Shown here: piece by piece, positions 8,504 to 61,390 of the stretch | Layout: each line of letters opens with the position of its first letter | Position numbering within the stretch: the stretch's first letter is position 1 | Virus record (IMG/VR): IMGVR_UViG_3300036985_007703 | Coordinates: 32,001 to 96,000 of that record | Reading direction: 5' to 3' (one strand) | Length of the DNA stretch: 64,000 nucleotides | DNA from: a virus | Made by a program: the position numbers and the translations under genes | Notes under the pieces: generated by a model | Databases searched by the model: none | What the model saw: the letters and a program-made list of their open reading frames with translations, nothing else | What the model was told of the DNA's origin: nothing

Positions 8504-8521
8504 TGCGTACGCGCGTACGCA
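8504..8521. promoter_or_regulatory. 18-bp palindrome, copy 1
   Basis: TGCGTACGCGCGTACGCA, perfect palindrome. Confidence 0.7.
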
Positions 8522-8771
8522 ACATCGAGGATGCACCTTAACTTTCTCCAGCATCTACGCGCAACCGTTGGCGAAATCCGCGCAGCGCGCGCTCCGCGTG
8601 CCACCTTGCCTTCTTGCCACTGCGTACGTCGGTCGGAGAATCTACATCAACGATGGCGATCAATCTCCACGTAATCTCGGGCCTTCGCGCCAGCGCGAGG
8701 GCCCACTGCATACGCAACATCGTGACTTTACATGAAGGATTGATCCTTAACCCCGCGCCGCACCAAGGGAA

Positions 8772-9155
8772 CTAACCCTTGTTCCCCTCATCCCCGTGGA
8801 GGAACGTGCGCAGGATCGCGGCCACCCCGCCCTCGGCCTCCGCCGGGGGCACGCTGGTGCGCGCCTGCACCGCGGCCACCGCGCGCCCCACCCCATCGCC
8901 CGCCGCGGCCAGCGCGTCCACCTGCACCTGCAGGGCATCCGCGCGCTCCCGGTGCTGCTTGAGGGCCGCCATCATGCCGAGGCGCGCCCGCTCCAGGGCC
9001 CCCACCTGGACCTCCGCCGCGACGAGGGCCTGCCCCAGCGCCGCGACCTCGCGCTCCACGCGCGCGAGCCCCGCCGTCAGCGCCCGCACGGTCCCCGCCA
9101 GCTCCGCGACCCGCGCCTCCACCCCCACCCACGAGGGCGCCCGCGGCGGCGTCAC
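8772..9155 (-). CDS. Coiled-coil hypothetical protein
   Basis: GTG 9155 overlapping upstream TGA; long Ala/Leu/Val heptads. Confidence 0.6.
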   Translation of the reverse strand: MTPPRAPSWVGVEARVAELAGTVRALTAGLARVEREVAALGQALVAAEVQVGALERARLGMMAALKQHRERADALQVQVDALAAAGDGVGRAVAAVQARTSVPPAEAEGGVAAILRTFLHGDEGNKG

Positions 9156-9751
9156 GAGCGACCCCGCACCCCCGCCGCGTCCTCCTCCGTCACCACCCCA
9201 AACGAGGCCGTGATGGCCTCCACGTCGATACTCGGCGGCGGCGCCACCGTGGGCACCGGGGGCGGCCCCAGCGGCACGAGGCTCCCCCCCAGGCGCACCA
9301 CCCACGCGGCCAGCGCCGTCGCCACCCCGTACGCCGCCTGACGCCAGGAGGTCGGCAGGGCCCCCAGCTCCACGTGGAGCCCCCGCGCCACCGCCAGCAA
9401 CAGTTCTAGCCCGTGGACCCCCCACACGGCCCCCGCCTCGTGGCCATCGGCCCCGCGCAAGCTCCCCGGCGCCCCGAGGGGCCGGTGCCAGCGCGCGAGC
9501 CCCATCACCAGCGCCGGGGGAAGCCCCCCCGCCACCAGCGCGTCCACCGCGTAGATCCCATGCCCATCCGCCCCCACCACGCGCAGGAGCCCCTCCACCG
9601 CCGCGCGGTCCAGGGCCTGGCGCCCCGCCGCCGCCCGCGTCCCCACGCGCGTCCCCAGCGCCGGCGTCCGCATCTGCCCCGCCAGCTCCGCCGCGGCCCC
9701 CGCCCGCGCCCCGTCCGGCCGCGTCGGCCGTCCCTGCTCGTCGCCCATCAC
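9152..9751 (-). CDS. Hypothetical protein
   Basis: GAGGAGG RBS; 199 aa. Confidence 0.6.
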   Translation of the reverse strand: MMGDEQGRPTRPDGARAGAAAELAGQMRTPALGTRVGTRAAAGRQALDRAAVEGLLRVVGADGHGIYAVDALVAGGLPPALVMGLARWHRPLGAPGSLRGADGHEAGAVWGVHGLELLLAVARGLHVELGALPTSWRQAAYGVATALAAWVVRLGGSLVPLGPPPVPTVAPPPSIDVEAITASFGVVTEEDAAGVRGRS

Positions 9752-9815
9752 GCGCCTCCTCTGCTGGATCGTCTCTGGGGTATTGTAGGCCGCCGCAGGG
9801 GCGCTATCAAGGCGC

Positions 9816-9833
9816 CGCGCACGCGCATGCGCA
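9816..9833. promoter_or_regulatory. 18-bp near-palindrome, copy 2
   Basis: CGCGCACGCGCATGCGCA, intergenic. Confidence 0.6.
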
Positions 9834-9847
9834 AGCAGAATGGAGGG

Positions 9848-10705
9848 TTAGTTGCGCTTGCGCCGCTGCCCCTTGGCCGGAGCCGCGTCCCGCGCCGGCG
9901 TCCGCCCCACGCGAGGCTCCTGCCAGGGGTGCCGCCAGACCGCCACCGCCACGCGCCCCTCGTCGCCGTCCGCCAGGTCCAGGGCCCGCACCCACGCCGG
10001 GGTCTCCTCCAACGCGCGGACCACGTCCGCGTCCGAGGCCTCCGCGCCCTCTGCCCCCCACAGGGCATGGGGGCGCCCCGTGTCGGGGTCCTCGTACCGC
10101 CACTCCGCGAGCCGCGCGCGCCACTCGTCCGGCGGCACGCCCTCCTCAGGGATCGGCTCCCAGGCGAACCAGGCCGTCAGGGGCACGCTGTCGCCCCCCG
10201 GCTGGGGGCGCCGCGCCCAGGACCGCCGCCCCTTATTGGGGAAGCCCGCGCTCGTCGCCTCGACCAGGCTCCGCAGCCGCTGGCTCAGCGACACGGCCTC
10301 GCCCTTCAGCGTCCAGGGCCCCTCGAACTCCGCGCGCCTCTTGCCCACGAGCTTGTAGTACTTCGCGTCCTTCGCGGCGTGGTTCCGGTCCTTCTGGTGC
10401 TTCTGGATGTACTTGCGCCCGCGCGGCGTCTGCTGGTGCGGCTTCGTCCGCTTGAAGTACGGCAACTTGGGCCCGTGGTGCAACGCCGCGACCCCGCGCG
10501 CGATGGCGTGCGCCGTCGGGGCGTCCGAGCGCCGCGGGGGCCCCTTCTTCCGCAGCCCCCCCACGATCGCCACCACGGCATGCCGCGTGTAGGGGTCCGC
10601 CGCCCGCGGCTTCTGCACCTTGATCGCGGCGCCCCCGTGGGGCGTCTTCCCCTCGACCAGGGCCCGCAGGCGCGCGCTGAGCCGCTCCCCGCGCGTCAGC
10701 AGCAC
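9848..10705 (-). CDS. Putative internal head protein with two leader motifs (basic module plus second module)
   Basis: LSARLRALVEG near the N-terminus and LSQRLRSLVEA internally; start uncertain (GTG 10705). Confidence 0.6.
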   Translation of the reverse strand: MLLTRGERLSARLRALVEGKTPHGGAAIKVQKPRAADPYTRHAVVAIVGGLRKKGPPRRSDAPTAHAIARGVAALHHGPKLPYFKRTKPHQQTPRGRKYIQKHQKDRNHAAKDAKYYKLVGKRRAEFEGPWTLKGEAVSLSQRLRSLVEATSAGFPNKGRRSWARRPQPGGDSVPLTAWFAWEPIPEEGVPPDEWRARLAEWRYEDPDTGRPHALWGAEGAEASDADVVRALEETPAWVRALDLADGDEGRVAVAVWRHPWQEPRVGRTPARDAAPAKGQRRKRN

Positions 10706-10709
10706 GGCG

Positions 10710-11033
10710 TCAGATGCTCCACGCATCCCAGGCCGCCTCAAACTGCTTGTGCGCCTCGGCCACGGCTGCCTGCGCCTCGAAGATCTCCCGCGCGCCCTTC
10801 GCCATGTCCGTGGCCTGGTATTCCCTAATCGGCACGTCGATCTCCCAGTGCATCAGCGGGCGCACCCCCGCCATCTCCTTGCGCTTCTTCTCCAGGCCCT
10901 TCACCGCCTGGGTCAGGGCCTCCGCCGCCTTGAGGACGGGGTCCACCTTGGGGATCGGCTTGCGGGTCTTCAGGATCTCCGCCGGGATGGTCACCTCGTC
11001 CAACTGCCGGATCAGCGCCTTCATGCTCCTCAT
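10710..11033 (-). CDS. Putative internal head protein (leader MRSMKALIRQLDE)
   Basis: ATGA overlap; shared leader motif. Confidence 0.65.
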   Translation of the reverse strand: MRSMKALIRQLDEVTIPAEILKTRKPIPKVDPVLKAAEALTQAVKGLEKKRKEMAGVRPLMHWEIDVPIREYQATDMAKGAREIFEAQAAVAEAHKQFEAAWDAWSI

Positions 11034-11359
11034 ACGGGTCTCCCCATCGCGAGTTCCCAGGCGTTCATCACGCCCCACTTGGCCTCGTCAATAGCGATCA
11101 GTTGCTCCTGGTACGCCGACATCGCCTGGCGGTCCGCCCGGTCCAGCCCCTTGACCAGCTTGGCCAGGGCCGCGACCTCCTTGTCGAACCGCGCCACCGC
11201 CGCATGCACGCCCTTGAGCACGGCCTCCGTCGGCACGTGCATCTGCTGGTTCCGCTGGTCGATCTCGCGCCGCCGCGCCTCCTTCGACTGGAAGTCCCCC
11301 GGCGCCACCTCGCGCCGCCGCTGGACGCCCTCGATCACCGCGCTCATCCGCTGTGCCAT
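11030..11359 (-). CDS. Putative internal head protein (leader MAQRMSAVIEG)
   Basis: GGAGGAG RBS; shared leader. Confidence 0.65.
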   Translation of the reverse strand: MAQRMSAVIEGVQRRREVAPGDFQSKEARRREIDQRNQQMHVPTEAVLKGVHAAVARFDKEVAALAKLVKGLDRADRQAMSAYQEQLIAIDEAKWGVMNAWELAMGRPV

Positions 11360-11361
11360 CG

Positions 11362-11706
11362 TCACTCCTCCGTATCGGGGTGGGCCGCGCCGTGCGCGAA
11401 CCCCACCTGGAACAGCAGCCCGTCGACCGCCTTGTTCAGCGCGATCACCGCCGCCTGCATGCGGGGGTCCGTCGCCGGGCGGTCCAGCCCCTGGACCAGC
11501 TCCGCTACGCGCCCCGCCGCCTGCTGCAGCGCCGCCGCCTTGGCCCCCGCGGCCTGGCGCGCGTTGGCCACGCCCCGCGCATCCTGCGGGGAGCGCCACG
11601 CCACGTTCATCCCGCTGGTGACCTGCCCCCAGTTGGGGGGCACGCCCTCGGCCAGCAGCCCCGAGGCGACCAGACTCGCCTCGATCATCGTGCGCATGCG
11701 CGTCAT
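11362..11706 (-). CDS. Putative internal head protein (leader MTRMRTMIEA)
   Basis: AAGGAGG RBS; shared leader. Confidence 0.65.
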   Translation of the reverse strand: MTRMRTMIEASLVASGLLAEGVPPNWGQVTSGMNVAWRSPQDARGVANARQAAGAKAAALQQAAGRVAELVQGLDRPATDPRMQAAVIALNKAVDGLLFQVGFAHGAAHPDTEE

Positions 11707-11715
11707 GGCGCCTCC

Positions 11716-12105
11716 TTACTCGGTCGCACCCCTGAATTTCCATTCCTTCTTGGCGAAGTCGTACCACGCCTGTAGCAGCGTGATCCCATTGCTTCCGCCA
11801 GCCCTGTGCTCCCACGAAATATCCATGGGGATCTGCATCATGTTGTGCTGGGCGCTGTAGTGCCCCGCGCCCTTCACGACCACCGTGCTCATCACGGCCT
11901 CGAAAACCCCCGCCTTGCCCACTAGCTCGTCGCTCTTCACGATCAAACGCCAGGGTCCAGCAGACGACAACTTGGCCGTCAACTTCACCGGCACCTTGAG
12001 GACCTTGGAGACTTGTTGCTCCAGCGACTTGATGTCGATCTCGTCCTCGCTCGGTCCTTCAGCGGCCTCGTGCAACCGCCCGATCAGGGTGCTCATCTTC
12101 TGCAT
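11716..12105 (-). CDS. Putative internal head protein (leader MQKMSTLIGRLHEA)
   Basis: GGAG RBS; shared leader. Confidence 0.7.
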   Translation of the reverse strand: MQKMSTLIGRLHEAAEGPSEDEIDIKSLEQQVSKVLKVPVKLTAKLSSAGPWRLIVKSDELVGKAGVFEAVMSTVVVKGAGHYSAQHNMMQIPMDISWEHRAGGSNGITLLQAWYDFAKKEWKFRGATE

Positions 12106-12173
12106 GGTATCTCCATTCTCAGGGGCGCCACCGGCGCCGCGTTTGCTACTTCGCGAGCCCCGCGCGCGCCGCC

Positions 12174-12695
12174 CTACGGCAGCACGTAAATGGTGCTGAC
12201 CCCGCGCTTGCGCGCCTCCGCCTGGGCCGCCTTGACCGCCTCGGCATAGAGCATGTTGCCGCCGGGGGCGAACGCCTCGTCCGACCGCATGTCCGGGTCC
12301 TGCGTGCCGATGCCGAACATCCAGTTGCCGCGCCCCCGCGGGGCCGCCCCGTGGTTGAAGCGGTACAGGTTGGTCTCCACGTTGACCTTGCCGGTCGCCT
12401 CTTCCAAGCGCCGGATCAGGCTCTGCATCTTCGTCATGGTGTCCTCACCCTTGATGGCCCGCTCGTAGGCCGCATCTTTGCCCTTGGCCGCCGCGTCGCG
12501 CCCATGCGCCCGGATGGCCTTCCGGCCCTTGGCCGTCTTGTTCTTCGTGCCGGGCTCGTAGTAGCCGGCCTTGTTCCCGCCCGCCTTGCAGATCGCGAAA
12601 GCCGCGCCCTTGTCCTTGCCGCCCTTGGTGACGCCCGCCACGCAGTGCCGCATGAAGGCGTCCGCCCGCTCGATCAACGCTTGCATCGACTCCAT
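12174..12695 (-). CDS. Putative internal head protein made of two leader-tagged modules
   Basis: MESMQALIERAD at the start, MTKMQSLIRRLEEA internally. Confidence 0.7.
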   Translation of the reverse strand: MESMQALIERADAFMRHCVAGVTKGGKDKGAAFAICKAGGNKAGYYEPGTKNKTAKGRKAIRAHGRDAAAKGKDAAYERAIKGEDTMTKMQSLIRRLEEATGKVNVETNLYRFNHGAAPRGRGNWMFGIGTQDPDMRSDEAFAPGGNMLYAEAVKAAQAEARKRGVSTIYVLP

Positions 12696-12705
12696 GACCG
12701 CCTCC

Positions 12706-13077
12706 TCACACGCTCGCCAGGATCCGCACGGGGACCGGGCTCGTCGGCGCCGTGGTCCCCGGCGTGCCGGGGCTCGTCACGCAGCAGCACGTGAGCCCCA
12801 CCCCGAACGCCAGGCCCTCCGGCACCGCGAACGACCGCTTGACCGCCGCGGGGACCATCAGCACGAGGTGCGGGTCCACGGTCCCCGGCGCCGCGCTCAC
12901 CGCGTTGTAGCACTTCACGTAGCTGGGGGCCCCCGCGTTGCCCGTGTTGTCGGCCTCCACGAGGTACAGCGTGCAGGGCGCCCCGAAGAGGTTGTTCTGC
13001 GCCGTCGCGCCGAGGGCCGTGTCCACCGCGAGGCGGGTCGCGACCGGGTTCACCTGGGTACTGACTGCCATCGTCAT
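12706..13077 (-). CDS. Small beta-rich virion (decoration-like) protein
   Basis: NAGAPSYVKCYN...P.LVLMVPA...GLAFGVGL pattern typical of small phage structural proteins; lacks the leader. Confidence 0.55.
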   Translation of the reverse strand: MTMAVSTQVNPVATRLAVDTALGATAQNNLFGAPCTLYLVEADNTGNAGAPSYVKCYNAVSAAPGTVDPHLVLMVPAAVKRSFAVPEGLAFGVGLTCCCVTSPGTPGTTAPTSPVPVRILASV

Positions 13078-13091
13078 CGTCGTACTCCTCG

Positions 13092-13109
13092 CGCGATCAC
13101 GTGATCGCG
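13092..13109. promoter_or_regulatory. Different 18-bp perfect palindrome just upstream of an RBS
   Basis: CGCGATCACGTGATCGCG, intergenic. Confidence 0.5.
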
Positions 13110-13122
13110 GCGTGTGTGCGTC

Positions 13123-13407
13123 TCAACTCGCTACCCACCCATATTGCCCCGACCAACGACACCGGCGTAGAAAATCGCGCGCCGCCGCCTGCGCCGCACG
13201 CCGGCTCGGGAACCAGTCCTCGCCCCCCACGTCCCGCAGGGGGTGGTCGGGGGCCTCGGCCAGCTGGCCCGAGAGGAGGTAGTACCACCCGTCCCCGCGC
13301 GCGCTGCCCTCGGCCTTGCGCACCACCACGGTGATGCCCTTGAGGGCCGCCGGATCGCGCCCTCCCGCGGCCGCCGCCCCCTCCAAGCGCTGCAGCAGCT
13401 CACGCAT
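13123..13407 (-). CDS. Putative internal head protein (leader MRELLQRLEG)
   Basis: Shared leader; coupled to upstream gene. Confidence 0.6.
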   Translation of the reverse strand: MRELLQRLEGAAAAGGRDPAALKGITVVVRKAEGSARGDGWYYLLSGQLAEAPDHPLRDVGGEDWFPSRRAAQAAARDFLRRCRWSGQYGWVAS

Positions 13408-13675
13408 GCCCAGCGCCAAATTTCTGCTCTACCCAGCGCTTGACATCATCAAAATAGGCCCACCCCTTCATCTCTTGCTGTTGCCCCTGCGCGTCGGTAA
13501 ATGAGCCCGATACCTGGGGGCCCGACGAGGAGGCCCACCGCGAGAACGCCACCTTCCCCAGCTGCTCCTCGCCCCGCAGGATGACCCAGGCGTAGCCCTC
13601 GCGGCGCAGCGTCAGCCCGTGCTTGAGGCGCAGCACCTTCGCGGTCTCTTCCAATCGCCCCAACAGCGTTCGCAT
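13400..13675 (-). CDS. Putative internal head protein (leader MRTLLGRLEE)
   Basis: GGAGGAG RBS before ATG 13675. Confidence 0.65.
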   Translation of the reverse strand: MRTLLGRLEETAKVLRLKHGLTLRREGYAWVILRGEEQLGKVAFSRWASSSGPQVSGSFTDAQGQQQEMKGWAYFDDVKRWVEQKFGAGHA

Positions 13676-13686
13676 CTCGCTCCTCC

Positions 13687-13704
13687 TGCGCATGCGCATG
13701 CGCA
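13687..13704. promoter_or_regulatory. 18-bp palindrome, copy 3
   Basis: TGCGCATGCGCATGCGCA between stop codon and RBS. Confidence 0.75.
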
Positions 13705-13707
13705 GCG

Positions 13708-15066
13708 CTACCTTACCACCGTGCCCCCCGCCCTGTCCGCAAACTCGCGCAGGAGGGCCCCGAGGGCCCCGCCCGCCGCCTCGCTGGCCGCCGCCCGCCC
13801 CAGGGCCAGCGCCTCGAAGCGCGCCCGCTGCGCCCCCGTCAGCTCCACGCCCTCATAGCGCCCCAGCACGTACGCCGCGAAGACCTCCGCGAACTCCTCC
13901 ACCGCGGACTCCGCCCCGTAGGCCGTCGGCGCCGGCACGTAGGCCGCCTGCGGGCCCTCGCGCTCCTGGTCCGCCTTGCTGCGCGGGTCGAACCACGCCG
14001 CGAAGCGCGCCCGCGCCCCCGCCCGCATGTGCTTGAACCAATAGCGGTGCCCCAGCTCGTGGACCACGACCTCCGTCACGGTCTTCGCACTCCAGGTCAA
14101 CTGCGGATTCAATACCACGTCATCCAAGCTGCTGGCGTAGTGGCCGCCCGACCGAAACCGCTCCCCCGATTTCGCCGTTGTACCCATCACAGCGCTGGTC
14201 GGCGGCAGCACGTAGATGCGCCCTTTCCAGACCACGCCAAAGCCCTTTTGACGCAGCGCCGCCTCCGCGCGCTGCACCCCCGCCAACACCGCCCGCGCCG
14301 TCCGGTTGCTCACCTGCGCATCCGGCACGCTGTCCTCGGGCGCCCGCGCGAGCTTGCGCAGATCCACCGCCGCCCCCGGATCGGTCAGCACTTTGACCCC
14401 GCGAATCTCGTACTCCAGCGGGGGGACCTCGGCCATGCGCTTCACGTCGATCGCCGCTACGGCCTCCAGCGTGCCGAAGACCCGGAATGCCGCCTGGACC
14501 TCGCGGTCGACCTCGGTCGCCGCCTGCTCGGCATTCTCTACATCGGCCTGCCAAGCGTTCAGGGTCCGCCCGCGCCCATACGTCTTTGACGAAGCCCCAC
14601 CCCACATCGCCTGCGCGCGCAGATCCTCGGGGGTCTGCGGGTAGTCCCGCTGAAACCAGGTCGCCTCTGCGTTCTTGAACGCTGCCAGGCGCGCCCGCGC
14701 GGCCTCTAGGGCCGGAAGCACCTTCATCTGCGGGGCCTCCGCCAACTTGCGCCCCGCCACCTTTGCCGGCAACTTGAGCACCGGCGATCCCATGCCCACC
14801 ACGTCAATGTGCTGCACTACCGACCTCGCAAGATCCTGTATCGTCGATAGGCCCGGCGCTCGCACCAGCGCGTCGACCAGCGCCGCGATCCGCCGCTCGC
14901 CCTCCGCGAACCACGCGAGGACCTTATCCCGATCCTTGGGCTCGCGGATCTGCGCGATCCGCGCCGCGTCCTTCACCCACTGCGCCCACCACTTGCGGAC
15001 CCCCGCCAGCCACGCCTTCGAGCCCGGCGCGGGGGCCGCCTCCAGCAGGGTCAGCAGCTCACGCAC
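13708..15066 (-). CDS. Leader-tagged protein with C-terminal zincin metallopeptidase (HExxH)
   Basis: MRELLTLLEA leader; GGHY...VVVHELGHRYW...TAYGAESAVEEFAEVFAAY. Confidence 0.8.
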   Translation of the reverse strand: MRELLTLLEAAPAPGSKAWLAGVRKWWAQWVKDAARIAQIREPKDRDKVLAWFAEGERRIAALVDALVRAPGLSTIQDLARSVVQHIDVVGMGSPVLKLPAKVAGRKLAEAPQMKVLPALEAARARLAAFKNAEATWFQRDYPQTPEDLRAQAMWGGASSKTYGRGRTLNAWQADVENAEQAATEVDREVQAAFRVFGTLEAVAAIDVKRMAEVPPLEYEIRGVKVLTDPGAAVDLRKLARAPEDSVPDAQVSNRTARAVLAGVQRAEAALRQKGFGVVWKGRIYVLPPTSAVMGTTAKSGERFRSGGHYASSLDDVVLNPQLTWSAKTVTEVVVHELGHRYWFKHMRAGARARFAAWFDPRSKADQEREGPQAAYVPAPTAYGAESAVEEFAEVFAAYVLGRYEGVELTGAQRARFEALALGRAAASEAAGGALGALLREFADRAGGTVVR

Positions 15067-15427
15067 GGCGCACCTTCGCAGCCAGCGTGCCGATGGCCCC
15101 CGCCACGCGGTCGTGCCACGCGGCCCCCGCCCGGTCGCCCCTCGCCCGCAGCGCCACGGCGATCCCGTCCGCCTGGTTCGAGAGGTCCGTCAGGGCCGCG
15201 CTCAGGGCCGCCGCGGCCCCCGGCGCCACCGCGAGGAAGTCCCCGCCCCGCCCCGTGGCCTCCCACACGAGGCGCGCCGCCGCGGCCTCCCCCGCGTCCA
15301 GCCCGTGCCCCTCGGGGTCGTCCGCCAGCTCCGCGAGGTCCGTCTCGAAGAACGAGGCCACCATCTCGGGGATCTTGACCCGGACAGCCCGCGCCTCGGC
15401 CCCCTCGATCAGCGCCCGCATCGTCAT
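15059..15427 (-). CDS. Putative internal head protein (leader MTMRALIEG)
   Basis: Shared leader. Confidence 0.65.
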   Translation of the reverse strand: MTMRALIEGAEARAVRVKIPEMVASFFETDLAELADDPEGHGLDAGEAAAARLVWEATGRGGDFLAVAPGAAAALSAALTDLSNQADGIAVALRARGDRAGAAWHDRVAGAIGTLAAKVRRA

Positions 15428-15768
15428 GACGCCACCAGCTCGATGCGCGTGGCGAAGCCCTCCCCGAAGTAGTCCTCCAGCCAGCTCCCCACCCGCATCC
15501 CCTTCTCCCCGTAGAGCCCCGGCAGCCCCAGCGCCCGCGCCGCCGAGATGGTCACCTGCAGGGATACCCCCCGCTGGTCGACCTTGGGCACCTGGCGCCG
15601 CACCTCGCCCCAGGCCCGCACGCGGACCACGCGCACGCGCCCCGCCGGGCGCTCGTACGCGATCTTGACCTCCACGGGCTCCTCCAGCCGCGCGCGCTTG
15701 GGCGCCGGCATGCGGAGGCTCCCATCCTTGTTGGCCACGGCCTCGATCAGCGCCCGCATCTTCCGCAT
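15424..15768 (-). CDS. Putative internal head protein (leader MRKMRALIEA)
   Basis: GGAGG RBS before ATG 15768. Confidence 0.65.
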   Translation of the reverse strand: MRKMRALIEAVANKDGSLRMPAPKRARLEEPVEVKIAYERPAGRVRVVRVRAWGEVRRQVPKVDQRGVSLQVTISAARALGLPGLYGEKGMRVGSWLEDYFGEGFATRIELVAS

Positions 15769-15779
15769 GGGGGCCTCCA

Positions 15780-16025
15780 TCACTGTTCCTCGTTGCTGAT
15801 CAAGAACTCCCGGAACACCTCCGACATCTCCTCGCAGGCATCCAACAGCGCCTCCAAGGCCTTCTCCCCCTGGACCTGCGCCACGATCTGTTTGGTCAGG
15901 GGCCCCTTGAACTGGCCCTCGATGGCGTAGGTCTTGTCTATCATCGTCCGCGCGTGGCGCAGGAGCCCGGAGGACGGCCCACCCTTCATGATCCCCTCGA
16001 TCAACGTGCTCATCGTATGCATCAC
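15780..16025 (-). CDS. Putative internal head protein (leader MHTMSTLIEG)
   Basis: GAGGAGG RBS; shared leader. Confidence 0.65.
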   Translation of the reverse strand: MMHTMSTLIEGIMKGGPSSGLLRHARTMIDKTYAIEGQFKGPLTKQIVAQVQGEKALEALLDACEEMSEVFREFLISNEEQ

Positions 16026-16037
16026 ACGCCTCCTCGC

Positions 16038-16706
16038 CTAGCCCCGCGCGCTGATCTGTGTCGCCACGTCCCGGCGCACGTAGTTGACCAGGAACTTCGC
16101 CGCGCGGTCCGCGTCCATCATGCCCAACGACACCTTCATGACCTTGGTGTCATCCTGCTTCGAGCCGTCCCACTTGTTCACCACGAAGGCGCTCGTCCCG
16201 CGGTCCATGTCGATCGTGACCTCCAGGTCGTAGACCATATCTTCCCCGTTCCGCGCCACGACCAGGACCGGCCAGTCGAACCCCTGCGACTCCACCGATG
16301 CCGTCAGGCCGCCGGCCCCGCTCATCATGGCCGAGCCCTTCAGCTGCGCGTTGACCGCGAGGGCCACCTCCTTGAAGAAGGCGATCAGCGCGCCCTCCAG
16401 GATCTTGCCCAGGTTGTTCGCGGAGCCGCTCAGCGCCTCGGCGAGGCCCGCGCCCTCCTGCAGCCGCTCGATCAGGGACGACATGGAGTCCCCCTCCACG
16501 CCCTCGACCTTGAGCTTGAGCTTAGGCAGCCACTCCTCGTCGTCGACTTGGTTGCGGATCTGCTGGAGCAGCCCCGCATCCTTGAACCCCTTGTAGTTGC
16601 CCGACATCCAGGCGTCGTACAGCTTGGCCTTCCAGCCCTTGCCCTTCTCTTTCGCCCACGCCTTGAGGGCCGCCATCTGCTCTGCGTTCGGTGCGTACTT
16701 TGCCAT
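16038..16706 (-). CDS. Two-module protein with internal leader (DSMSSLIERLQEG)
   Basis: N-terminal helical module EQMAALKAWA...WKAKL...LLQQIRN fused to a leader-tagged module. Confidence 0.7.
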   Translation of the reverse strand: MAKYAPNAEQMAALKAWAKEKGKGWKAKLYDAWMSGNYKGFKDAGLLQQIRNQVDDEEWLPKLKLKVEGVEGDSMSSLIERLQEGAGLAEALSGSANNLGKILEGALIAFFKEVALAVNAQLKGSAMMSGAGGLTASVESQGFDWPVLVVARNGEDMVYDLEVTIDMDRGTSAFVVNKWDGSKQDDTKVMKVSLGMMDADRAAKFLVNYVRRDVATQISARG

Positions 16707-16762
16707 GATTCCCGCTCCTATGGGCCGTGGGCCCCGCTAGACGCCCACCGGCGCCGTTGATC

Positions 16763-17134
16763 TCACCTTGCCGCCGCCGCGAGGCTCGATCGCCACGCCT
16801 CGGCGTTGTTGACCGCGTTACGGATGCGCCGCGTCAACCCCTCGTCCTGCGGCGCATAGAACCGCCGCTTGGCCATGTCGTCCGCCAGGGCCAGGCTCCA
16901 GCTCGGCACGTCGTACCGCTTCTTGTACAGGAACACCTCGCCGTCCCACCCCTCGGGCTGCGCGAAGGCCGCCTGGTAGGAGCCCTGGCTCGGCTTGCCC
17001 TGGTCCCCCATCACCCACGCCTGCCAGGTGATCGCCACGGGGCGCCGCGCCTTCTCCACGATCACACGGACCACGCCCGCGCCCTCGATAAGGGCCCGTA
17101 GGCGCGCGCTCAGGGGCATCATGCGTGCTCGCAT
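16763..17134 (-). CDS. Putative internal head protein (leader MMPLSARLRALIEG)
   Basis: GGAGAG RBS; shared leader. Confidence 0.6.
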   Translation of the reverse strand: MRARMMPLSARLRALIEGAGVVRVIVEKARRPVAITWQAWVMGDQGKPSQGSYQAAFAQPEGWDGEVFLYKKRYDVPSWSLALADDMAKRRFYAPQDEGLTRRIRNAVNNAEAWRSSLAAAAR

Positions 17135-17197
17135 CCGCGTCTCTCCGTTGCATACTGGGGCGCGAGGCTCCGTGGCCAGACCACCTGCCTCCCCTCC

Positions 17198-17226
17198 AGC
17201 GTAACCACCGCCCGCGCGCCTGTCAC
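17198..17226 (-). promoter_or_regulatory. Sigma70-like promoter GTGACA-17-TACGCT
   Basis: Mostly intergenic, 17-bp spacer, near-consensus hexamers. Confidence 0.45.
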
Positions 17227-17609
17227 CGCACGGCCTTGTACGAGGCTTCCCTGGCCTTCGCGATGGCCTCGCGCTCCGCGTAGCCATCCGCGACGAACTT
17301 ATCCCGCTGCTGCCCCACGAACTTCTCCCAGCGCTTCACCGCCGCCGCCGCCGCCGCCGCGTCCTTGTAGACCCTGCTCTCCAGCATGCTCACCCACGTG
17401 ACCACATCGTGGTAGTCCACGCGCCACGCGGTGCCCGCGTTGTCATCCTGGATGATCCGCACCGGGAGTTCGTACTTACCCGCCTTGCCGAGCTGCATGG
17501 TCCGCCCGTAGGCCATCCGCTTGCCGTCCGGGCTCGGGTAGGCCGTCCACCCCTTGGGGGTCGTCCCCGCCTCGGCCGCCTCTAACATCGCGCGCATCGT
17601 GCCCATCAC
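17223..17609 (-). CDS. Putative internal head protein (leader MGTMRAMLEA)
   Basis: Shared leader. Confidence 0.65.
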   Translation of the reverse strand: MMGTMRAMLEAAEAGTTPKGWTAYPSPDGKRMAYGRTMQLGKAGKYELPVRIIQDDNAGTAWRVDYHDVVTWVSMLESRVYKDAAAAAAAVKRWEKFVGQQRDKFVADGYAEREAIAKAREASYKAVR

Positions 17610-26109: not shown

Positions 26110-28254
26110 CTACAGGTAGGTCACCGTCGCGTTGCCGTGCCAGTAGGCCGCCGTCGCGTTCGCCACGATGTCCGTCATCACAAACGCCATCGCCCCATAC
26201 CCGTCGGCCGCGGTCCCCGTGATCGTCGCGGGCATCCCCGCCACGTGGGACTGGTTCGACACGTCATACGTGATCGTGTCCACCGCCCCGCGGAACGTCT
26301 TGTGGATCTCGGAATACAGGAACGTCGCCGCGTTCCCCCCCGTCTGGTTCCACCACCCGAACCCCAGGGGCACCACCTCGACGTTGCCCCCGCCCGTCAC
26401 GATCGGCGAGAGGTGGCCCAAGATCAGCGAGTCCAGCCACGAGATCGTCGCGTCCCACGCCAGGATCGCCCACCCCGTCGCGAACCCCGCCGTCAAGGAA
26501 GACTTGGTGCTCATCTGGAACCCGAGGAGCGTGTTGATCGAGAGCGACTTTGCATCCCAGGCATCGTCGTCGGGCACCCACTTGCTCGTCCCCTGGTTCC
26601 ACCGCGCGTTGGTCGTCAACATGAGCGTCCCCGCCCCGCTGAAGTAGATGCGCGACTTGATAGCCGAGGACCCACCGCCCTCCCAGAGGAGGCAGCACGT
26701 GTCGTTGCCGCCCGTCCCCGGCTCGAAGGGCCCGTTGACATAGCTCGCGTCGGATCCCAGCACCACCTGCCCGCCCACCAGCGTCACGCCGCTGTCCAGT
26801 GTGAGGAGCCCTACCACGTTGGCGATCAGCGCCGTGATGTTGAAGATTCCGCCGCCGATGTCGAACCCGCTGGCCCCGCCCACGTTCCCCACGCGCGTGT
26901 ACGCGCTCCAGTTCGCCAGGTTGTTCCAGGCGAGCCCCCCGCTGAAGACCCCGTGCTTCGCGAGCAGCATGGGCCCCATCTGGTTGTCGGAGCTGAGCCG
27001 CAGCATCGTCACCGAGGTCTGCGGCGCGATCGGCGCGCGGTAGAAGTTCCCTGCAGTGATATACCCACCCACGATCGCCGCGAAGCCCAGGGTCGAGCCC
27101 CAGTACAGCGTGATCGTCTGCCCCGTCACCAACGAGTCATCCGTGATGCCGTGCGACCGCCAGATCTGGACCGCCCCGCTCGGCGCCGTCTCGGGGTCGA
27201 TCTGCGGCACGCGGCCGTTGATCGCCCCCGTCAGGATCGCGATGGCCTCGGAGACGTTCTTGCTCGTGATGCTGGTGGGGTCCCCCGCGACGTCCCGCGT
27301 CTGGATGTCCTCGGCGTGCGGGAAGATGTCAAACCCCTCCACGAAGCGGTCGTCCGTGACGAGGTCCCGCACCGTGGCCCGCGTCCAGTACCACGCGGTG
27401 CCCGCCGGGGGCGCCGTGTCACTCGTGTGCCCCAGGTCCAGCTTGATCCAGGGGTTCGTGACGAACCCCTCGCTGTCCGCCGTCGCCAGCGTCGTGGCCC
27501 CGCTGTCCGCATACAGCGTCGCCACCGTGATGCGCCCGTTATCGTCCCCCACGTAGGGGCCCTGCATGCGGAACGACGCCGCCGACGCCCCCAGCTGGAT
27601 GAAGCTCGACTTGAGCGTCCACGCGCCGCCCCCCAAGGGGCAGTACACCTTGCCCGTGATCTGGAACACGGGGGGCGACCCCGTGGGGGCCGCGAAGTCG
27701 AGCGACGCGCGCTTCACCGTCACGCGGTCCAACGACGCCGTCATGCGGTAGCAGCTCGCCGGCGTCGCCGACGTGCTGCGGTCGATGTAGCTGTCCAGGA
27801 TCGTCGTCGCCCCCATCGGGATCGTGATCTTGGCCAGGCGCACCGCGCTCCCGCTCGTGCTGGGGGCCGTGGTGTCCACGTAGAAGGCCCCGCTCGTGGG
27901 GGCCCCCGTCGCGTAGGTGCAGCTCAGGTACACGTAGTACGTCTTGGTGCTCGGCATCGTGCCGCCACCCCCGGTGAACTGCCCGCTGAGGTCCACCGAG
28001 ACGTCCGTCGCGTAGCGCACCGCGAGGGCCGCCCCGCCGGTCTTCTCCACCCACAGGTAGAAGCTGTCCTGCTCCCCGTTCGGCGTGATCTTGACCGTCT
28101 TGTTCGGGGTGGCCTGCGCCATGACGTAGCCCCCCCGGTAGATGCCGGGGTCCAGCACCGCAAGCGCCTTGTTGACCCCCTCGGAGACGTAGGTCTCGCG
28201 CCACCGCACCTTCATCTGCGCCTCGGGGATCACGACCGTCTGCACTGTGGCCAT
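26110..28254 (-). CDS. Tail / tail-fibre structural protein
   Basis: 714 aa, G/T/S-rich; N-terminal WRETYVSEGVNK...PGIYRG; VRLAKITIP. Confidence 0.7.
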   Translation of the reverse strand: MATVQTVVIPEAQMKVRWRETYVSEGVNKALAVLDPGIYRGGYVMAQATPNKTVKITPNGEQDSFYLWVEKTGGAALAVRYATDVSVDLSGQFTGGGGTMPSTKTYYVYLSCTYATGAPTSGAFYVDTTAPSTSGSAVRLAKITIPMGATTILDSYIDRSTSATPASCYRMTASLDRVTVKRASLDFAAPTGSPPVFQITGKVYCPLGGGAWTLKSSFIQLGASAASFRMQGPYVGDDNGRITVATLYADSGATTLATADSEGFVTNPWIKLDLGHTSDTAPPAGTAWYWTRATVRDLVTDDRFVEGFDIFPHAEDIQTRDVAGDPTSITSKNVSEAIAILTGAINGRVPQIDPETAPSGAVQIWRSHGITDDSLVTGQTITLYWGSTLGFAAIVGGYITAGNFYRAPIAPQTSVTMLRLSSDNQMGPMLLAKHGVFSGGLAWNNLANWSAYTRVGNVGGASGFDIGGGIFNITALIANVVGLLTLDSGVTLVGGQVVLGSDASYVNGPFEPGTGGNDTCCLLWEGGGSSAIKSRIYFSGAGTLMLTTNARWNQGTSKWVPDDDAWDAKSLSINTLLGFQMSTKSSLTAGFATGWAILAWDATISWLDSLILGHLSPIVTGGGNVEVVPLGFGWWNQTGGNAATFLYSEIHKTFRGAVDTITYDVSNQSHVAGMPATITGTAADGYGAMAFVMTDIVANATAAYWHGNATVTYL

Positions 28255-28274: not shown

Positions 28275-28292
28275 TGCGTACGCGCGTACGCA
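28275..28292. promoter_or_regulatory. 18-bp palindrome, copy 6
   Basis: (C)TGCGTACGCGCGTACGCA(G), intergenic. Confidence 0.75.
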
Positions 28293-37995: not shown

Positions 37996-38013
37996 TGCGC
38001 ATGCGCATGCGCA
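37996..38013. promoter_or_regulatory. 18-bp palindrome, copy 7
   Basis: TGCGCATGCGCATGCGCA between stop and RBS. Confidence 0.75.
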
Positions 38014-48581: not shown

Positions 48582-48599
48582 TGCGTACGCGCATGCGCA
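48582..48599. promoter_or_regulatory. 18-bp near-palindrome, copy 8
   Basis: TGCGTACGCGCATGCGCA, intergenic. Confidence 0.7.
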
Positions 48600-48602
48600 G
48601 CC

Positions 48603-49583: not shown

Positions 49584-49592
49584 CGCGCCCTC

Positions 49593-50642: not shown

Positions 50643-50643
50643 C

Positions 50644-50871
50644 TCACACCTCCCGGCGCGGCCATCGCCGCGTCAAATAGGGCACCGCCCGGATGATCTG
50701 CGCGTACCACGCCGGACACGTCGCCCCGAGCGTCCCCTGGGCCGGATCCAGCGCGTAGCTCTCCATGCCCACCTGGGCTCCACCCACCGCCGGGTCCACC
50801 GCGCAACTCGCGATCGTGATCATCGCGCCGCTGCTGGCGGGATTGACCTCGTACGCGTTGACGTTCGCCAT
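50644..50871 (-). CDS. Small hypothetical protein
   Basis: GGAGG RBS; fills the gap exactly; IIRAVP C-terminal motif echoes IVRAVP of 48301..48567. Confidence 0.55.
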   Translation of the reverse strand: MANVNAYEVNPASSGAMITIASCAVDPAVGGAQVGMESYALDPAQGTLGATCPAWYAQIIRAVPYLTRRWPRREV

Positions 50872-50880
50872 CGACCCCTC

Positions 50881-51924: not shown

Positions 51925-51934
51925 GCCATCCTCC

Positions 51935-52990: not shown

Positions 52991-52993
52991 CGC

Positions 52994-53956: not shown

Positions 53957-53957
53957 C

Positions 53958-54149
53958 CTAGTCTCCCGGCTCCTCGACCCTCGTGAGGATCCCGCCGTAG
54001 CCCCCCGCCTGGTTGATCGTCAGCTCGACGAGGATCGGGGATCCCCCCCCCGTGTCCGTGGGGTCGTTGGCGATGGTCTGGATCTGCTCCAAGGGGAGAT
54101 CATCCAGCCACGCACTAGGGATCCAACTGGTCCGATTAGCCATCGCCAC
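53958..54149 (-). CDS. Small hypothetical protein
   Basis: 63 aa, fills the gap between coupled genes. Confidence 0.5.
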   Translation of the reverse strand: MAMANRTSWIPSAWLDDLPLEQIQTIANDPTDTGGGSPILVELTINQAGGYGGILTRVEEPGD

Positions 54150-54152
54150 CTC

Positions 54153-57119: not shown

Positions 57120-57129
57120 CGCCTACCTC

Positions 57130-58644: not shown

Positions 58645-60771
58645 TTACTTGATCTCGCTGAGCGCGAGCGTCCCGCGCTTGATGATGTAGCTCGCCGGGG
58701 TCATCACGTTGCCGTCCACGTCCACGAAGCCCTCGTGGCCCGGCGCCGCCAGCGTCACGTTCGCGTAATCCATGCCCTTCGTCGCCGCCTTGATGATGTC
58801 ATGCACGGTCTGCTTGTAGAGGGGCTGGTTGAAGTCGCGCCCCCGCAAGACCTCCAGCAGCGCCTGCTCGATGTCCGCGAGCACCTCGGCCGCCACGTAG
58901 CTCGGCAGCACCTTGACCGCCACCGCCACGTCCACCGGCACGAGCATCGCGCTGCCGTCCGTCACCTGCACGAGCTGCGTGACCTCCTTGATCCCGTCGA
59001 TGTAGGCCTGCATCCCGTAGATGAGGCCCGCCGCCGGCGCCACGTAGTCCCCGTCCCCGTTCACGCTCACGATGGGGACCTGCACGTAGTTCGCCTTGCA
59101 GTCCGCATCGAACAGCGTCGAGAGGTGCGCTTGGAGGTCGACGAGCACCGCGAGGATGTCCGCCTGGAGCTGCGCCGCGCTCCCCGGCAGGGGCGCGATG
59201 GCCTCGGCCGCGTTGCCCACCGCCGTCACGGCCGTGCCCGCGAGGCCCAGCAGCGTGGTCAGGTACTGCGCCATCGTGACCTGGCCCTCGCCCGTCGGCG
59301 TGAGCAGCTGCTGCATGGCGAACCCATAACCGTCGAGCTTGGTCGCCGCCGCCCCGCCGTTGCTGAGGCTCGTGCTGATCGTGCCCCCCTGCGCCGCCAG
59401 CGTCCGCGAGTAGTTCGCCAGCGTCGTGTCGCTGGGGTAGGTGGCCTTGATGTAGTTGTCGAGGTCCGTCAGCGTCGTGCCCATCGCCTTATAGGCCGCG
59501 TCCCCCGTCGTCATCTCCACCTGGAGCTGCTGCGCCACCGCCCGCACGTTGGCCGCCTGGACCTCCAGGGCGCTCTTCAAGAACCCCATCTCGGCGAGAA
59601 GCCCCTGCATCTCCGCAAGGATGCCCTGCGCCGTGGCGATGTCCGCCGCCGCCGCCGCCTCGGCCGGCCCCACGAGCAGCAGGTAGTTCGCCAGGTAGCC
59701 ATCGATCTGCTCGCACTCCCCGACCAGGATCGCGTCCTCCTCGGAGGCCCGCACGTTGATCGCGTAGCCCTTCGCCACGCGCCCGTAGAGGGGGTCGCTG
59801 AACCCGTTGACCTGCGCCTGGTAGTCGGTCTGCGTGATGGCCGCCCCGCGCGCCGCAAAGGCGTAGGGGGCCAGCTTGCGGGCCTCATCCGGGGTCTCGG
59901 GGTCCGCCCCGCCGCTCGCCCCCAGCGGGTTCGTGCAGGCGATCTTGATGGCCGCCCCGCCGACGCTCAGCACGTCGGTCGCGCTCGCCACGGTGCCCGC
60001 CGCGGCCCGCCCCGTGGCCCCGTGGATCAGCGTGTACTGGATCTTCACATCCGACCCGGCCTCGGGGATGTTCCCCGCCACGCCATCCCCGCACGCCACG
60101 GCCGGGGGGTCGTAGAGGTAGTCCACCTCGTACTGGTTCGTCTGCGCAAAATCGAGGAAGTCGTTCTCGGCCCACTCCGCGCCGTCGATCCACACGCGCA
60201 CGCTCCCCTGCGCGACCCAGATCCCGTTCGCGGGGTCCCCGCCCTGCATGCGGAAGCGCTGGTTCTGCGCCCCGTCCCCCGTGTAGCCCACGGTCCGCGT
60301 GGTGCCCTCGCGGCACGCCACGGTGATCGTCGCGGTGCCCGGCGCGAGGAAGGTCGGCGCCACGGTCTCGAAGACCAGCCCCGAGGGCCCCGCGAAGCGG
60401 AACCCCGCCTGGAGCTGCGCGGGCGCCGGGATCGCCGGGGTGAACGTCAGGTCGAGGTCGACCGTCGCCGCTGCCGCGGGCCGCATCTTGTAGCCGACCT
60501 GCTTGACCAGCTTGGCCACCGCGGAGTGCGTGCGCGCCGTGTCGAGGTAGCAGTCGCTCGCCACGCGGTCCATGTACCAGCAGAGCTGCCCCACCGCGTT
60601 CGCCACGAGGTCGATGAGCATGATGCCCACGCTCGTCGAGGCGTAGTCGTTGTAGACGCTCACGTATTCGACCTTGAGCCGCCGCAGCAGGCTGTCGAAG
60701 ATCGAGGCGTAGTCCTTCGCCGCAAACTTTACGGCATTCAGAGGCTTGCGGTCCGCTACGGGGACTCCCAT
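58645..60771 (-). CDS. Baseplate J / T4 gp6-like wedge protein
   Basis: DYASI...LIDLVA...YLDTA...GYKMRPAAAA...GDGVAGNIP...TNPLGASGGADPET...AITQTDY. Confidence 0.9.
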   Translation of the reverse strand: MGVPVADRKPLNAVKFAAKDYASIFDSLLRRLKVEYVSVYNDYASTSVGIMLIDLVANAVGQLCWYMDRVASDCYLDTARTHSAVAKLVKQVGYKMRPAAAATVDLDLTFTPAIPAPAQLQAGFRFAGPSGLVFETVAPTFLAPGTATITVACREGTTRTVGYTGDGAQNQRFRMQGGDPANGIWVAQGSVRVWIDGAEWAENDFLDFAQTNQYEVDYLYDPPAVACGDGVAGNIPEAGSDVKIQYTLIHGATGRAAAGTVASATDVLSVGGAAIKIACTNPLGASGGADPETPDEARKLAPYAFAARGAAITQTDYQAQVNGFSDPLYGRVAKGYAINVRASEEDAILVGECEQIDGYLANYLLLVGPAEAAAAADIATAQGILAEMQGLLAEMGFLKSALEVQAANVRAVAQQLQVEMTTGDAAYKAMGTTLTDLDNYIKATYPSDTTLANYSRTLAAQGGTISTSLSNGGAAATKLDGYGFAMQQLLTPTGEGQVTMAQYLTTLLGLAGTAVTAVGNAAEAIAPLPGSAAQLQADILAVLVDLQAHLSTLFDADCKANYVQVPIVSVNGDGDYVAPAAGLIYGMQAYIDGIKEVTQLVQVTDGSAMLVPVDVAVAVKVLPSYVAAEVLADIEQALLEVLRGRDFNQPLYKQTVHDIIKAATKGMDYANVTLAAPGHEGFVDVDGNVMTPASYIIKRGTLALSEIK

Positions 60772-60785
60772 CGCTCAGCTCCTTC

Positions 60786-61202
60786 TCACAGCCCGGTCGG
60801 GGCGCCCTGGATCGGCACCTGCTGCTGGTACACCTGGTTGTTGATCCGGTACACCACGTCGAGCACGATCGCCGTGTCCTCCAGGCCCACGTCCTTGCCT
60901 GTCCGCGCCTCGACTGACAATACCTCAGCGCGGGGCTCGAACAAAGCGATGGCCCGCGCCGTCACGGCCCCCACGCGCGCCTGCGTGAGCGGATCGAGGT
61001 TGTCAAAGACGAACGCCTGCACGCTCGTCCCGAGGGCCCCGCGCATCACGCGCTCCCCCACGCTCGTCGTCATGAGCGCCTTGATCGAGTTGAAGACCAC
61101 GGCGTCCAGCCCCTGCACCATCATCGGGAAGGCCTGGCTCCCCACCCGGAAGGGGTACGCGATGCTCCGCAGCACCATCGGCGTCGTCGTCGGCACCGGC
61201 AT
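60786..61202 (-). CDS. Baseplate wedge gp25 (GPW/gp25 family)
   Basis: IAYPF...SIKALMTTSVGERVMR..LGT...FEPRA. Confidence 0.92.
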   Translation of the reverse strand: MPVPTTTPMVLRSIAYPFRVGSQAFPMMVQGLDAVVFNSIKALMTTSVGERVMRGALGTSVQAFVFDNLDPLTQARVGAVTARAIALFEPRAEVLSVEARTGKDVGLEDTAIVLDVVYRINNQVYQQQVPIQGAPTGL

Positions 61203-61360
61203 CAGACGGCCGCCTCGTCGGGGTCATCCAGGGGGCACGCCGGCAGCTTGGGCAGCTCCGGGATCTTGGGCAGCGCCGGGAGGTCGAAGGGGAGCCCCGG
61301 CATCGGGATCGCCAGCGCCGGCAGCGCCGGCAGGGGCGGGATCTTGCACTTGGTCGCCAT
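61202..61360 (-). CDS. 52-aa proline-rich peptide (not in ORF track)
   Basis: GAGGAGG RBS; MATKCKIPPLPALPALAIPMPGLPFDLPALPKIPELPKLPACPLDDPDEAAV; TGATG coupling to gp25. Confidence 0.7.
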   Translation of the reverse strand: MATKCKIPPLPALPALAIPMPGLPFDLPALPKIPELPKLPACPLDDPDEAAV

Positions 61361-61372
61361 CGTCGTCCTCCT

Positions 61373-61390
61373 CGCGCATGCGCATACGCA
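61373..61390. promoter_or_regulatory. 18-bp near-palindrome, copy 9
   Basis: CGCGCATGCGCATACGCA between stop and RBS. Confidence 0.65.

Follow-up and report, generated by a model that had tools for sequence, protein, structure and literature searches.

The palindrome and its place in the genome

The stretch of DNA analysed here, a window of 64,000 nucleotides (nt), comprises bases 32001-96000 of the IMG/VR virus record IMGVR_UViG_3300036985_007703, which is 168,532 bp long with a G+C content of 69.6%. The window carries nine copies of an 18-bp palindrome, and the nature of this element is the subject of the present report. By codon-position G+C, the minus strand encodes essentially all genes. 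Scans against protein families identified virion genes (a gp23-type major capsid protein, a gp20-type portal and a gp21-like protease fused to a scaffold-like region), tail genes (tail sheath and baseplate wedge proteins, with weaker hub-like matches) and genes for replication and other functions (a UvsX/RecA-like recombinase, a DnaB-like helicase with an intein, a primase and DNA methyltransferases). Two junction resolvases, one RusA-like and one RuvC-like, and a Cas4-like nuclease (exonuclease) were also found. Judged by its sequence, the source is an uncultured T4-like myovirus. No capsid protein of a cultured phage was more than 35% identical to that of this phage, and no nucleotide match to the DNA was found in the phage collection. 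Because the first 341 nt of the record recur at its end with 97.7% identity (genome 1-341 and 168192-168532, in coordinates of the whole record), the assembly is probably a closed and complete genome, though the record is classed as linear and 83% complete.

Searching the window with the degenerate 18-mer YGCGYAYGCGCRTRCGCR gave exactly nine matches (Table 1), the same nine that had been listed in the initial annotation, and none was found in 100 dinucleotide-preserving shuffles of the window. The whole record contains 26 exact copies, against none for a reversed-pattern control, together with two further copies that each have one mismatch, a transversion at the terminal base. The palindrome is in fact 20 nt long, with C at position -1 in 20 of the 26 copies and a purine at position +19 in all of them, and in this genome the site reads (C)YGCGYAY-GCGC-RTRCGCR(G). 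Twelve of the 18 positions are invariant over the 26 copies; the other six vary by transitions only, and the half-sites are GCAT, GCAC, GTAC or GTAT. The initial annotation had described all differences between copies as transitions, and this is true both of the 26 exact copies and of the orthologous copies in the three close relatives described below.

Approximately 18-20 of the 26 copies are intergenic, in a genome with at most 16% non-coding DNA (p ~2e-9 or lower). A further five or six copies lie within open reading frames (ORFs), nearly all in the frame CGC-ATG-CGC-ATG-CGC, which is the sole frame that fits the codon bias; one copy falls in the last codons of a gene and one in the first codons of a gene. 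The palindrome is not tied to translation starts as such. In the window, with gaps read on the minus (coding) strand, seven of the nine copies are found 3-8 nt past a stop codon and 11-39 nt ahead of an ATG with a GGAG-type ribosome-binding site. Together with the copy at 9816, which lies somewhat further past a stop codon, these are the eight of nine copies correctly placed by the initial annotation in gaps between a stop and the next ribosome-binding site.

Same places and other spellings in relatives

An exact-match scan of IMG/VR yielded three close relatives, G001 (161 kb, 23 copies), G004 (8 copies) and G002 (4 copies), which are 85-95% identical to this genome over most of its length. 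Each alignable copy has its orthologue in place in the close relatives. Over 33 orthologous groups the twelve fixed bases were never altered, although the flanks differ by up to 25%, while the six pyrimidine/purine positions change freely and by transitions only. Neither gain nor loss of a site was seen in the aligned regions of these genomes, only decayed spellings.

The two arms of the palindrome covary in this clade. Across the 26 copies the pair at positions 5 and 14 is CG in 18, TA in four, TG in three and CA in one (p = 0.01), and the pair at positions 7 and 12 is CG in seven, TA in 15, TG in four and CA in none (p = 0.0005). Perfect palindromes make up 14 of the 26 copies against 6.4 expected (p = 0.0004), and seven combinations of orthologous group and pair have switched fully between T-A and C-G. 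When mismatched states were counted once per orthologous group, G.U states on the sense strand exceeded C.A states by 10 to 5 at the internal pairs (p = 0.15) and by 7 to 6 at the terminal pair. A strand asymmetry of 7 to 1 in this genome alone was discarded as evidence, having shrunk to 10 to 5 in the count per orthologous group.

More distant contigs, with conserved gene order, were reached through capsid homologues 45-63% identical to that of this phage. They contain no TGCGCA motif, and have other palindromes at the same places; the capsid proteins of the distant relatives with these other spellings are 53-63% identical to that of this phage. The element is GCGAAC-TYRA-GTTCGC in G005 (157 kb with terminal repeats, 26 copies), G006 (176 kb, 20 copies) and G008 (a partial record of 125 kb, 27 copies), and GCGMAC-ACGT-GTKCGC in G014 (161 kb, estimated to be 87% complete, 39 copies); these copy numbers resemble the 26 of this genome. 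At the junction after the gp13-like gene, which corresponds to genome 125094, GCGAAC-TYRA-GTTCGC is found in the contigs L042, L043 and L310, and CGGCAC-ACGT-GTGCCG in L308. The gene after the portal gene contains each genome's own palindrome near codon 110 (codons 108-110 in three genomes), imperfect in L308. The peptide encoded there is RMRMR in this genome and RTQVR in G005, G006, L042, L043 and L310, and the symmetry of the nucleotide sequence is therefore kept while the peptide changes.

When junctions that could be mapped between this genome and G005 or G006 were compared, at least six of 14 had a copy in both (p = 0.004), and the proteins neighbouring the shared junctions are only 25-45% identical. 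The in-gene copy after the portal gene is counted among these. The variant GCGCAC-GCGC-GTGCGC, present here, matches the inferred perfect form of the relatives, CGAAC-TCGA-GTTCG, at 10 of 14 core positions, and the differences between the two cores are symmetric changes from A/T to G/C. From this comparison the palindrome families of this genome and its relatives are probably homologous. The element is real and strongly constrained, conserved in position and symmetric through its centre. With 26 copies over the record, mostly intergenic, orthologues in place in close relatives and respelled palindromes at the same junctions in distant ones, the initial proposal of a phage-wide cis-element has held up.

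A duplex DNA site or a hairpin

In each clade the centre of the element is self-complementary around a central CG (G-CG-C, A-CG-T and T-CG-A). The exceptions are G005 and G006, where the central dinucleotide is never CG but differs from it by one transition (CA or TG), because the hexamer CTCGAG is wholly absent from these genomes. This hexamer, the XhoI site, occurs 0 times against 31-38 expected, which looks like restriction-site avoidance. A hairpin loop has no reason to be self-complementary, and symmetric centres favour a two-fold symmetric site in duplex DNA. The M/K position of G014 provides a second line of evidence. Among the 39 copies the combinations A..T, A..G, C..T and C..G occur 10, nine, 11 and nine times (Fisher p = 1), and the halves of the site thus vary independently. 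The hybrids, 20 of the 39 copies, have an A.G or C.U mismatch in the middle of the stem, and their predicted RNA hairpin has a stability of -5.4 kcal/mol, compared with -9.9 to -12.1 kcal/mol. Asymmetric centres and hybrids showed no bias relative to transcription, with CA in nine and TG in 14 copies of G005, 11 and eight in G006, and 11 against nine hybrids in G014.

We therefore lean, with modest confidence, towards reading the copies as one two-fold symmetric, operator-like site in duplex DNA, recognised by a predicted dimeric, sequence-specific protein. A dimeric-protein operator was one of several options in the initial annotation, and the symmetric centres, the independence of the half-sites in G014 and the lack of orientation bias make it the best supported of them. 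One symmetric site would then have been inherited throughout a lineage of uncultured T4-like phages, taking on a different spelling in each clade. Candidate readers are a LexA-family protein of the host and a phage protein that went unrecognised.

In G005 and G006, no intergenic motif recurs apart from the palindrome and the TTGACAAA early promoter. The early-promoter form TTGACAAA-N16-TAnnnT has been conserved between clades of 51-70% G+C, and late promoters of the TATAAATA type are essentially absent from this genome (G000), G005 and G006; for this reason a T4-type late promoter was rejected as the identity of the palindrome. In the late region of G005 (~90 kb), where approximately 13 palindromes lie, the promoter and terminator types scanned for are almost entirely lacking. 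A few copies in the early regions of G005 and G006 precede a -35 element by 8-22 nt, with no fixed phasing, and the order of palindrome and then early promoter seen at the 9816 copy recurs there. Contexts of the copies are mixed: between cistrons, upstream of an early -35 element, downstream of a promoter, within ORFs, and between an intrinsic terminator and the gene for transfer-messenger RNA (tmRNA). No U-tract follows any copy, since a purine comes next in 26 of 26 cases (usually as GGAG), and the palindrome is therefore not an intrinsic terminator; canonical terminators with a T-run occur elsewhere in the genome. On the duplex-site reading, a bound dimer would act as a roadblock or insulator against read-through between the gene blocks of a one-directional genome, and as an operator would also repress the few adjacent sigma-70-type promoters. 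We infer that the palindrome punctuates transcription of a one-directional genome that does without T4-type late promoters.

A possible class of reader is suggested by the spelling of the site in relatives. In various Gram-positive bacteria, among them Bacillus and Mycobacterium, LexA binds as a dimer to the motif GAAC-N4-GTTC (PMC3323433, PMC4234289). The element GCGAAC-N4-GTTCGC of G005, G006 and G008 contains this motif exactly, and its core is also found in the site of G014. G005, G006 and G008 each encode a protein with a LexA DNA-binding domain (LexA_DNA_bind, Pfam PF01726, 36-75 bits, above the curated cut-off; Table 1), the protease domain being absent in all three, and the G008 protein aligns with the N-terminal domain of E. 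coli LexA (PDB) with E = 1e-7. In G005 the gene lies in an operon flanked by two copies of the palindrome, the first of which covers the spacer and putative -10 element of a TTGACA promoter. The LexA-domain gene is absent from G001, G014, G009 and G007, and relative to the gene order of this genome it has been inserted, in G005, between the genes for the Cas4-like exonuclease and the RuvC-like protein. Since it is missing from several genomes and is inserted in this way, its sequence context marks it as accessory and not as the universal reader. The complete genome G009, which lacks the gene, contains only six copies of the palindrome.

A more specific version of the roadblock, which we regard as unlikely, is that a host LexA-type dimer, or in some relatives the phage LexA-domain protein, occupies the ~26 sites as a timer. 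The bound protein would block read-through from early promoters into late genes, and phage replication and recombination would activate RecA or UvsX, which would destroy or displace it. As a variant, the many sites might titrate host LexA in the manner of a sponge. Occurrences of the 18-mer are spread over many high-G+C bacteria, and in the bacterial genomes that contain it, it was never found beside lexA. A metagenome-assembled genome of the Polyangiaceae (JBGAKG01, G010) has nine copies, mostly in a host intergenic repeat, TGCGCATGCGCATGCGCA-TGCCCCTGCCCGCC, and none by lexA. These copies may be coincidence or a hint of the host; as a host clue they were set aside, because they belong to a different host repeat. 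A search with dTMP kinase gave no host signal.

Several observations weigh against a duplex site read by a dimer, or against LexA as that dimer. The only two variants with two mismatches in G014 are both symmetric. The gap to the ATG is near-constant (13 nt in many G005 copies, 11-20 nt here) and the copies abut the ribosome-binding site, which fits an RNA role as well. The covariation of the arms in this clade is not predicted by independent half-sites; it could reflect selection for intrastrand pairing, or hairpin-templated correction of long G+C-rich quasi-palindromes during replication, or a second constraint acting at the RNA level. GAAC..GTTC occurs in none of the 26 copies here, where the half-site is GYAY, and no LexA-like gene was found in this genome by Pfam search, by a profile of the three relatives' proteins, by tblastn or by hhalign. 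The LexA-domain genes look accessory, being absent from G014 with its 39 copies and variable in their place of insertion. In a set of 120 small non-structural proteins, Pfam recognised a single helix-turn-helix protein, which is 175 amino acids (aa) long, HTH_17/MerR-like and encoded at genome 4608-5135, and among the proteins scanned, in a scan that was not exhaustive, no repressor or integrase was found.

The main competitor is an intercistronic RNA stem-loop on polycistronic mRNA, with a stem of 7-8 bp and a GCGC loop, that a sequence-specific RNA-binding protein or nuclease would read. Its role would be to set or protect the ends of transcripts, or else to insulate the ribosome-binding site that follows. 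This agrees with the location of the genes on one strand and with the position of most copies, 3-8 nt past a stop and abutting the next Shine-Dalgarno sequence. The hairpin has a predicted stability of -12.7 to -15 kcal/mol, change by transitions only is what pairing with G.U intermediates would produce, and the arm covariation is significant, with its seven fully compensated switches among close relatives. The 10 to 5 excess of G.U over C.A on the sense strand points the same way but is not significant. A conserved KH-domain (KhpA-like) protein is encoded by the phage (Table 1), and T4 has intercistronic C(UUCG)G hairpins. The compensatory pairing present in this clade is, however, violated in G014, where the four combinations are equally frequent and 20 of 39 stems are mismatched. 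The 'loop' is self-complementary in each clade, asymmetric centres and hybrids are unbiased relative to transcription, and several copies lie upstream of a promoter or at conserved codons within ORFs. The hairpin has no U-tract with which to terminate, and its stem is shorter than RNase III requires. Of the RNA processing or stability hairpin in the initial annotation, the pairing thus finds support in this clade, and the half-site independence in G014, the symmetric centres and the lack of strand bias speak against it. We consider an RNA stem-loop doubtful, yet it keeps substantial weight, because the arm covariation and the symmetric double variants of G014 are explained on the duplex-site reading by inference only.

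The same covariation would fit pairing within single-stranded DNA no less than within RNA, and the palindrome could instead form a DNA hairpin or cruciform, as the recognition or nicking site of a structure-specific enzyme (one initiating recombination-dependent replication or loading the sliding clamp) or as an N4-like hairpin promoter. Genes for RusA-like and RuvC-like resolvases and a Cas4-like exonuclease are present in the phage, searches gave no late promoter motif, and one copy lies directly between a terminator and the tmRNA gene with no other promoter in between. The hybrids of G014 do not pair, however, and at 14-16 bp the versions in relatives lack the length for a stable cruciform. 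As to a promoter, a perfect palindrome gives no direction, separate sigma-70 promoters follow a copy in relatives, and, as the copies abut the Shine-Dalgarno sequence, a start site that left a leader in place would have no space. A scan of large proteins found no phage RNA polymerase, on which ground a promoter for such an enzyme was also rejected. Structured DNA is, in our view, quite improbable. A mobile or recombinogenic palindrome, comparable to REP elements or to the promoter-early stem-loops (PeSLs) of T4-type phages, that spreads and mediates cassette exchange without a function for the phage is less probable still. The copies at 9816 and 13687 coincide with breakpoints of homology to G001, a few copies precede early promoters as in PeSLs, and some copies lie in frame inside genes. 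Breakpoints are nevertheless not enriched at copies: two of 70 relative to G001, the closest relative, fall within 40 nt of one (p = 0.28), and none of 22 relative to G004 falls near one. Positions, that of the in-gene copy included, are kept across very deep divergence, and sites in the aligned regions of close relatives have only decayed. The initial suggestion of a recombination site bounding gene cassettes is accordingly not supported. Last, a supercoiling-responsive Z-DNA tract would account for the strict alternation of the 18-mer and for variation that always preserves it. The positional homologues in relatives (GCGAACTYRAGTTCGC and CGGCACACGTGTGCCG) do not alternate, so a pattern of transitions only is no pointer to Z-DNA. 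The conserved flanks already interrupt the alternation (C-T at the 5' side and A-R at the 3' side), and the specificity of twelve invariant bases goes far beyond what Z-DNA requires. The Z-DNA element of the initial annotation finds no support here, and we regard it as extremely improbable.

Neighbouring features and related systems

The copies of the window and other features are listed in Table 1. The copy at genome 7258 lies between a canonical terminator (with a run of six T residues) and the tmRNA gene, and ends 8 nt before the mature 5' end of the tmRNA. Inteins were found in two genes of this genome, and in relatives they are found in the portal gene instead. Between window positions 28001 and 44000 the G+C content falls to 60-65% over three giant genes (1603, 1365 and 2007 aa), of which the first shows seven stretches that match the Laminin_G_3 (concanavalin-like lectin) family and the second a sortilin/Vps10-like domain. 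The giant genes probably encode fibre or host-recognition proteins of different origin. Many unrelated small proteins (window 13400-13677, and many gene starts in 9848-22668) begin with an MRxLLxRLEE-like leader that ends in (L/I)xE and resembles T4 capsid-targeting peptides. Some in-gene copies of the palindrome encode RMRMR just before an MRxLLxRLEE-like stretch. The RMRMR peptides are similar to these leaders, and internal translation starts at such copies were considered; they were rejected, as the start is not conserved in relatives and the codon usage upstream is that of coding sequence.

Table 1. Positions of the palindrome copies in the window and of other features in this genome and its relatives
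Feature	Position	Strand	Context
Perfect palindrome TGCGTACGCGCGTACGCA	window 8504-8521		in a stretch of ~860 nt without a confident gene; G001 orthologue differs at one terminal base
Copy	window 9816-9833		17 nt past stop of a 297-aa gene (window 9848-10741, minus); a promoter-like site and then a 199-aa gene come next; G001 homology stops at this copy
Sigma-70-like promoter TTGATA-17-TACAAT, read from sequence	window 9782-9810 (approximate)	minus	begins 5 nt downstream of the 9816 copy
Perfect (TGCGCA)x3	window 13687-13704		3 nt past stop, 11 nt before ATG of a small gene beginning MRTLLGRLEE
Perfect palindrome CGCGCATGCGCATGCGCG	window 19321-19338		6 nt past stop, 26 nt before ATG; identical in G001
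Perfect (TGCGCA)x3	window 22708-22725		8 nt past stop, 39 nt before ATG of a 311-aa gene; G001 orthologue has a 1-base deletion in the motif
Perfect palindrome TGCGTACGCGCGTACGCA	window 28275-28292		3 nt past stop, 20 nt before ATG of a 714-aa gene
Perfect (TGCGCA)x3	window 37996-38013		between the 2007-aa and 1365-aa genes; 6 nt past stop, 16 nt before ATG; compensated double change in G001 orthologue, C5/G14 to T5/A14
Asymmetric copy	window 48582-48599		3 nt past stop, 14 nt before ATG of an 88-aa gene, with a 929-aa tail-protein-like gene downstream
Asymmetric copy	window 61373-61390		6 nt past stop, 12 nt before ATG of a 52-aa gene upstream of a baseplate wedge gene; gene on the other side has weak baseplate-hub/tail-lysozyme similarity; orthologues in G001, G004 and G002 have three different spellings
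tRNA-Lys(CTT)	genome 6737-6809
tmRNA	genome 6900-7249	minus	Rfam RF00023, 66.7 bits, full length
DnaB-like helicase gene	genome 9589-12174	minus	intein with LAGLIDADG domain
KH-domain (KhpA/KhpB-like) RNA-binding protein, 118 aa	genome 14187-14543	minus	45-52% identity in G005 and G006
984-aa gene upstream of portal	L034:4314-7268	minus	intein with HNH domain
LexA-DNA-binding-domain-only protein, 96 aa	G005 L330:1468-1758	plus
LexA-DNA-binding-domain-only protein, 154 aa	G006 L329:1246-1710	minus
LexA-DNA-binding-domain-only protein, 159 aa	G008 L331:1501-1980	plus

The closest described parallel is the 17-bp dyad repeat TGTTCGG-NNN-CCGAACA of Cluster O mycobacteriophages (Corndog), for which a dimeric DNA-binding protein was predicted and the function left open by its authors (PMC4351075). 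In both cases one invariant palindrome recurs through the genome, with more than 30 copies there and 26 in 168 kb here, the centre can be asymmetric without orientation bias, most copies are not linked to promoters, and the phages are not evidently temperate. Many copies of the Cluster O repeat are intergenic and about a third lie in or at the ends of ORFs, compared with ~18-20 intergenic copies and five or six in ORFs here. The Cluster O repeat differs in belonging to a Mycobacterium siphovirus, in its sequence and in its 7-3-7 geometry, whereas the present element belongs to a T4-like, one-directional genome, keeps its positions across clades with a respelled site, and shows arm covariation in this clade. 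A likeness to LexA operators lies in the GAAC-N4-GTTC box of the relatives' element and in the LexA-DNA-binding-domain-only proteins of three of them. Real SOS boxes, by contrast, are degenerate, with free N4 centres, and lie over the promoters of repair genes; the copies described here are near-invariant, with one centre per genome, and lie mostly between phage cistrons, structural ones among them. The half-site in this genome is GYAY and never GAAC, no LexA-like gene is present, and LexA as the reader is a candidate only.

Stoperators are the sites of the L5 repressor gp71 in Cluster A mycobacteriophages. They occur as two to three dozen copies of a short site in short intergenic gaps and are thought to stop elongating RNA polymerase (discussed in PMC4351075). 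The present palindrome resembles them in copy number and in its genome-wide distribution in short intergenic gaps, but stoperators are asymmetric, oriented with transcription and read by the immunity repressor of a temperate phage, whereas the site here is symmetric, with 14 of 26 copies perfect. Short stem-loops between the cistrons of lytic phages include the intercistronic hairpins of T4, the PeSLs of T4-type phages, in which a stem-loop is followed by an early promoter, and the RNase III sites of T7. The 9816 copy and several copies in G005 and G006 have the PeSL-like order. These stem-loops, however, conserve structure and not a sequence of 12-14 bases, and are not symmetric through the loop. 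Identity with PeSLs was rejected: a promoter follows only one of the nine window copies (that at 9816) and 3-4 of 26 in G005, and the majority of early promoters lack a copy.

For timed phage transcription, T4-like phages serve as the textbook example, and the uncultured lineage described here, to which this genome with its 70% G+C and its genes all on one strand belongs, lacks late promoters of the T4 type. Beyond the sigma-70-like early promoters, the palindrome is the lineage's only recurrent intergenic signal. That its places are kept while its spelling changes by clade points to a co-evolving reader and a further layer of control over the whole genome. In relatives, the agreement of the site with the LexA box and, in some of them, genes for LexA-domain-only proteins suggest a link between the timing of phage gene expression and the host response to DNA damage, and if the sites did serve as a LexA-type timer, late transcription would be coupled to replication by a route unlike that of gp55, gp33 and gp45 in T4. 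The respelled sites themselves form a natural series of site variants.

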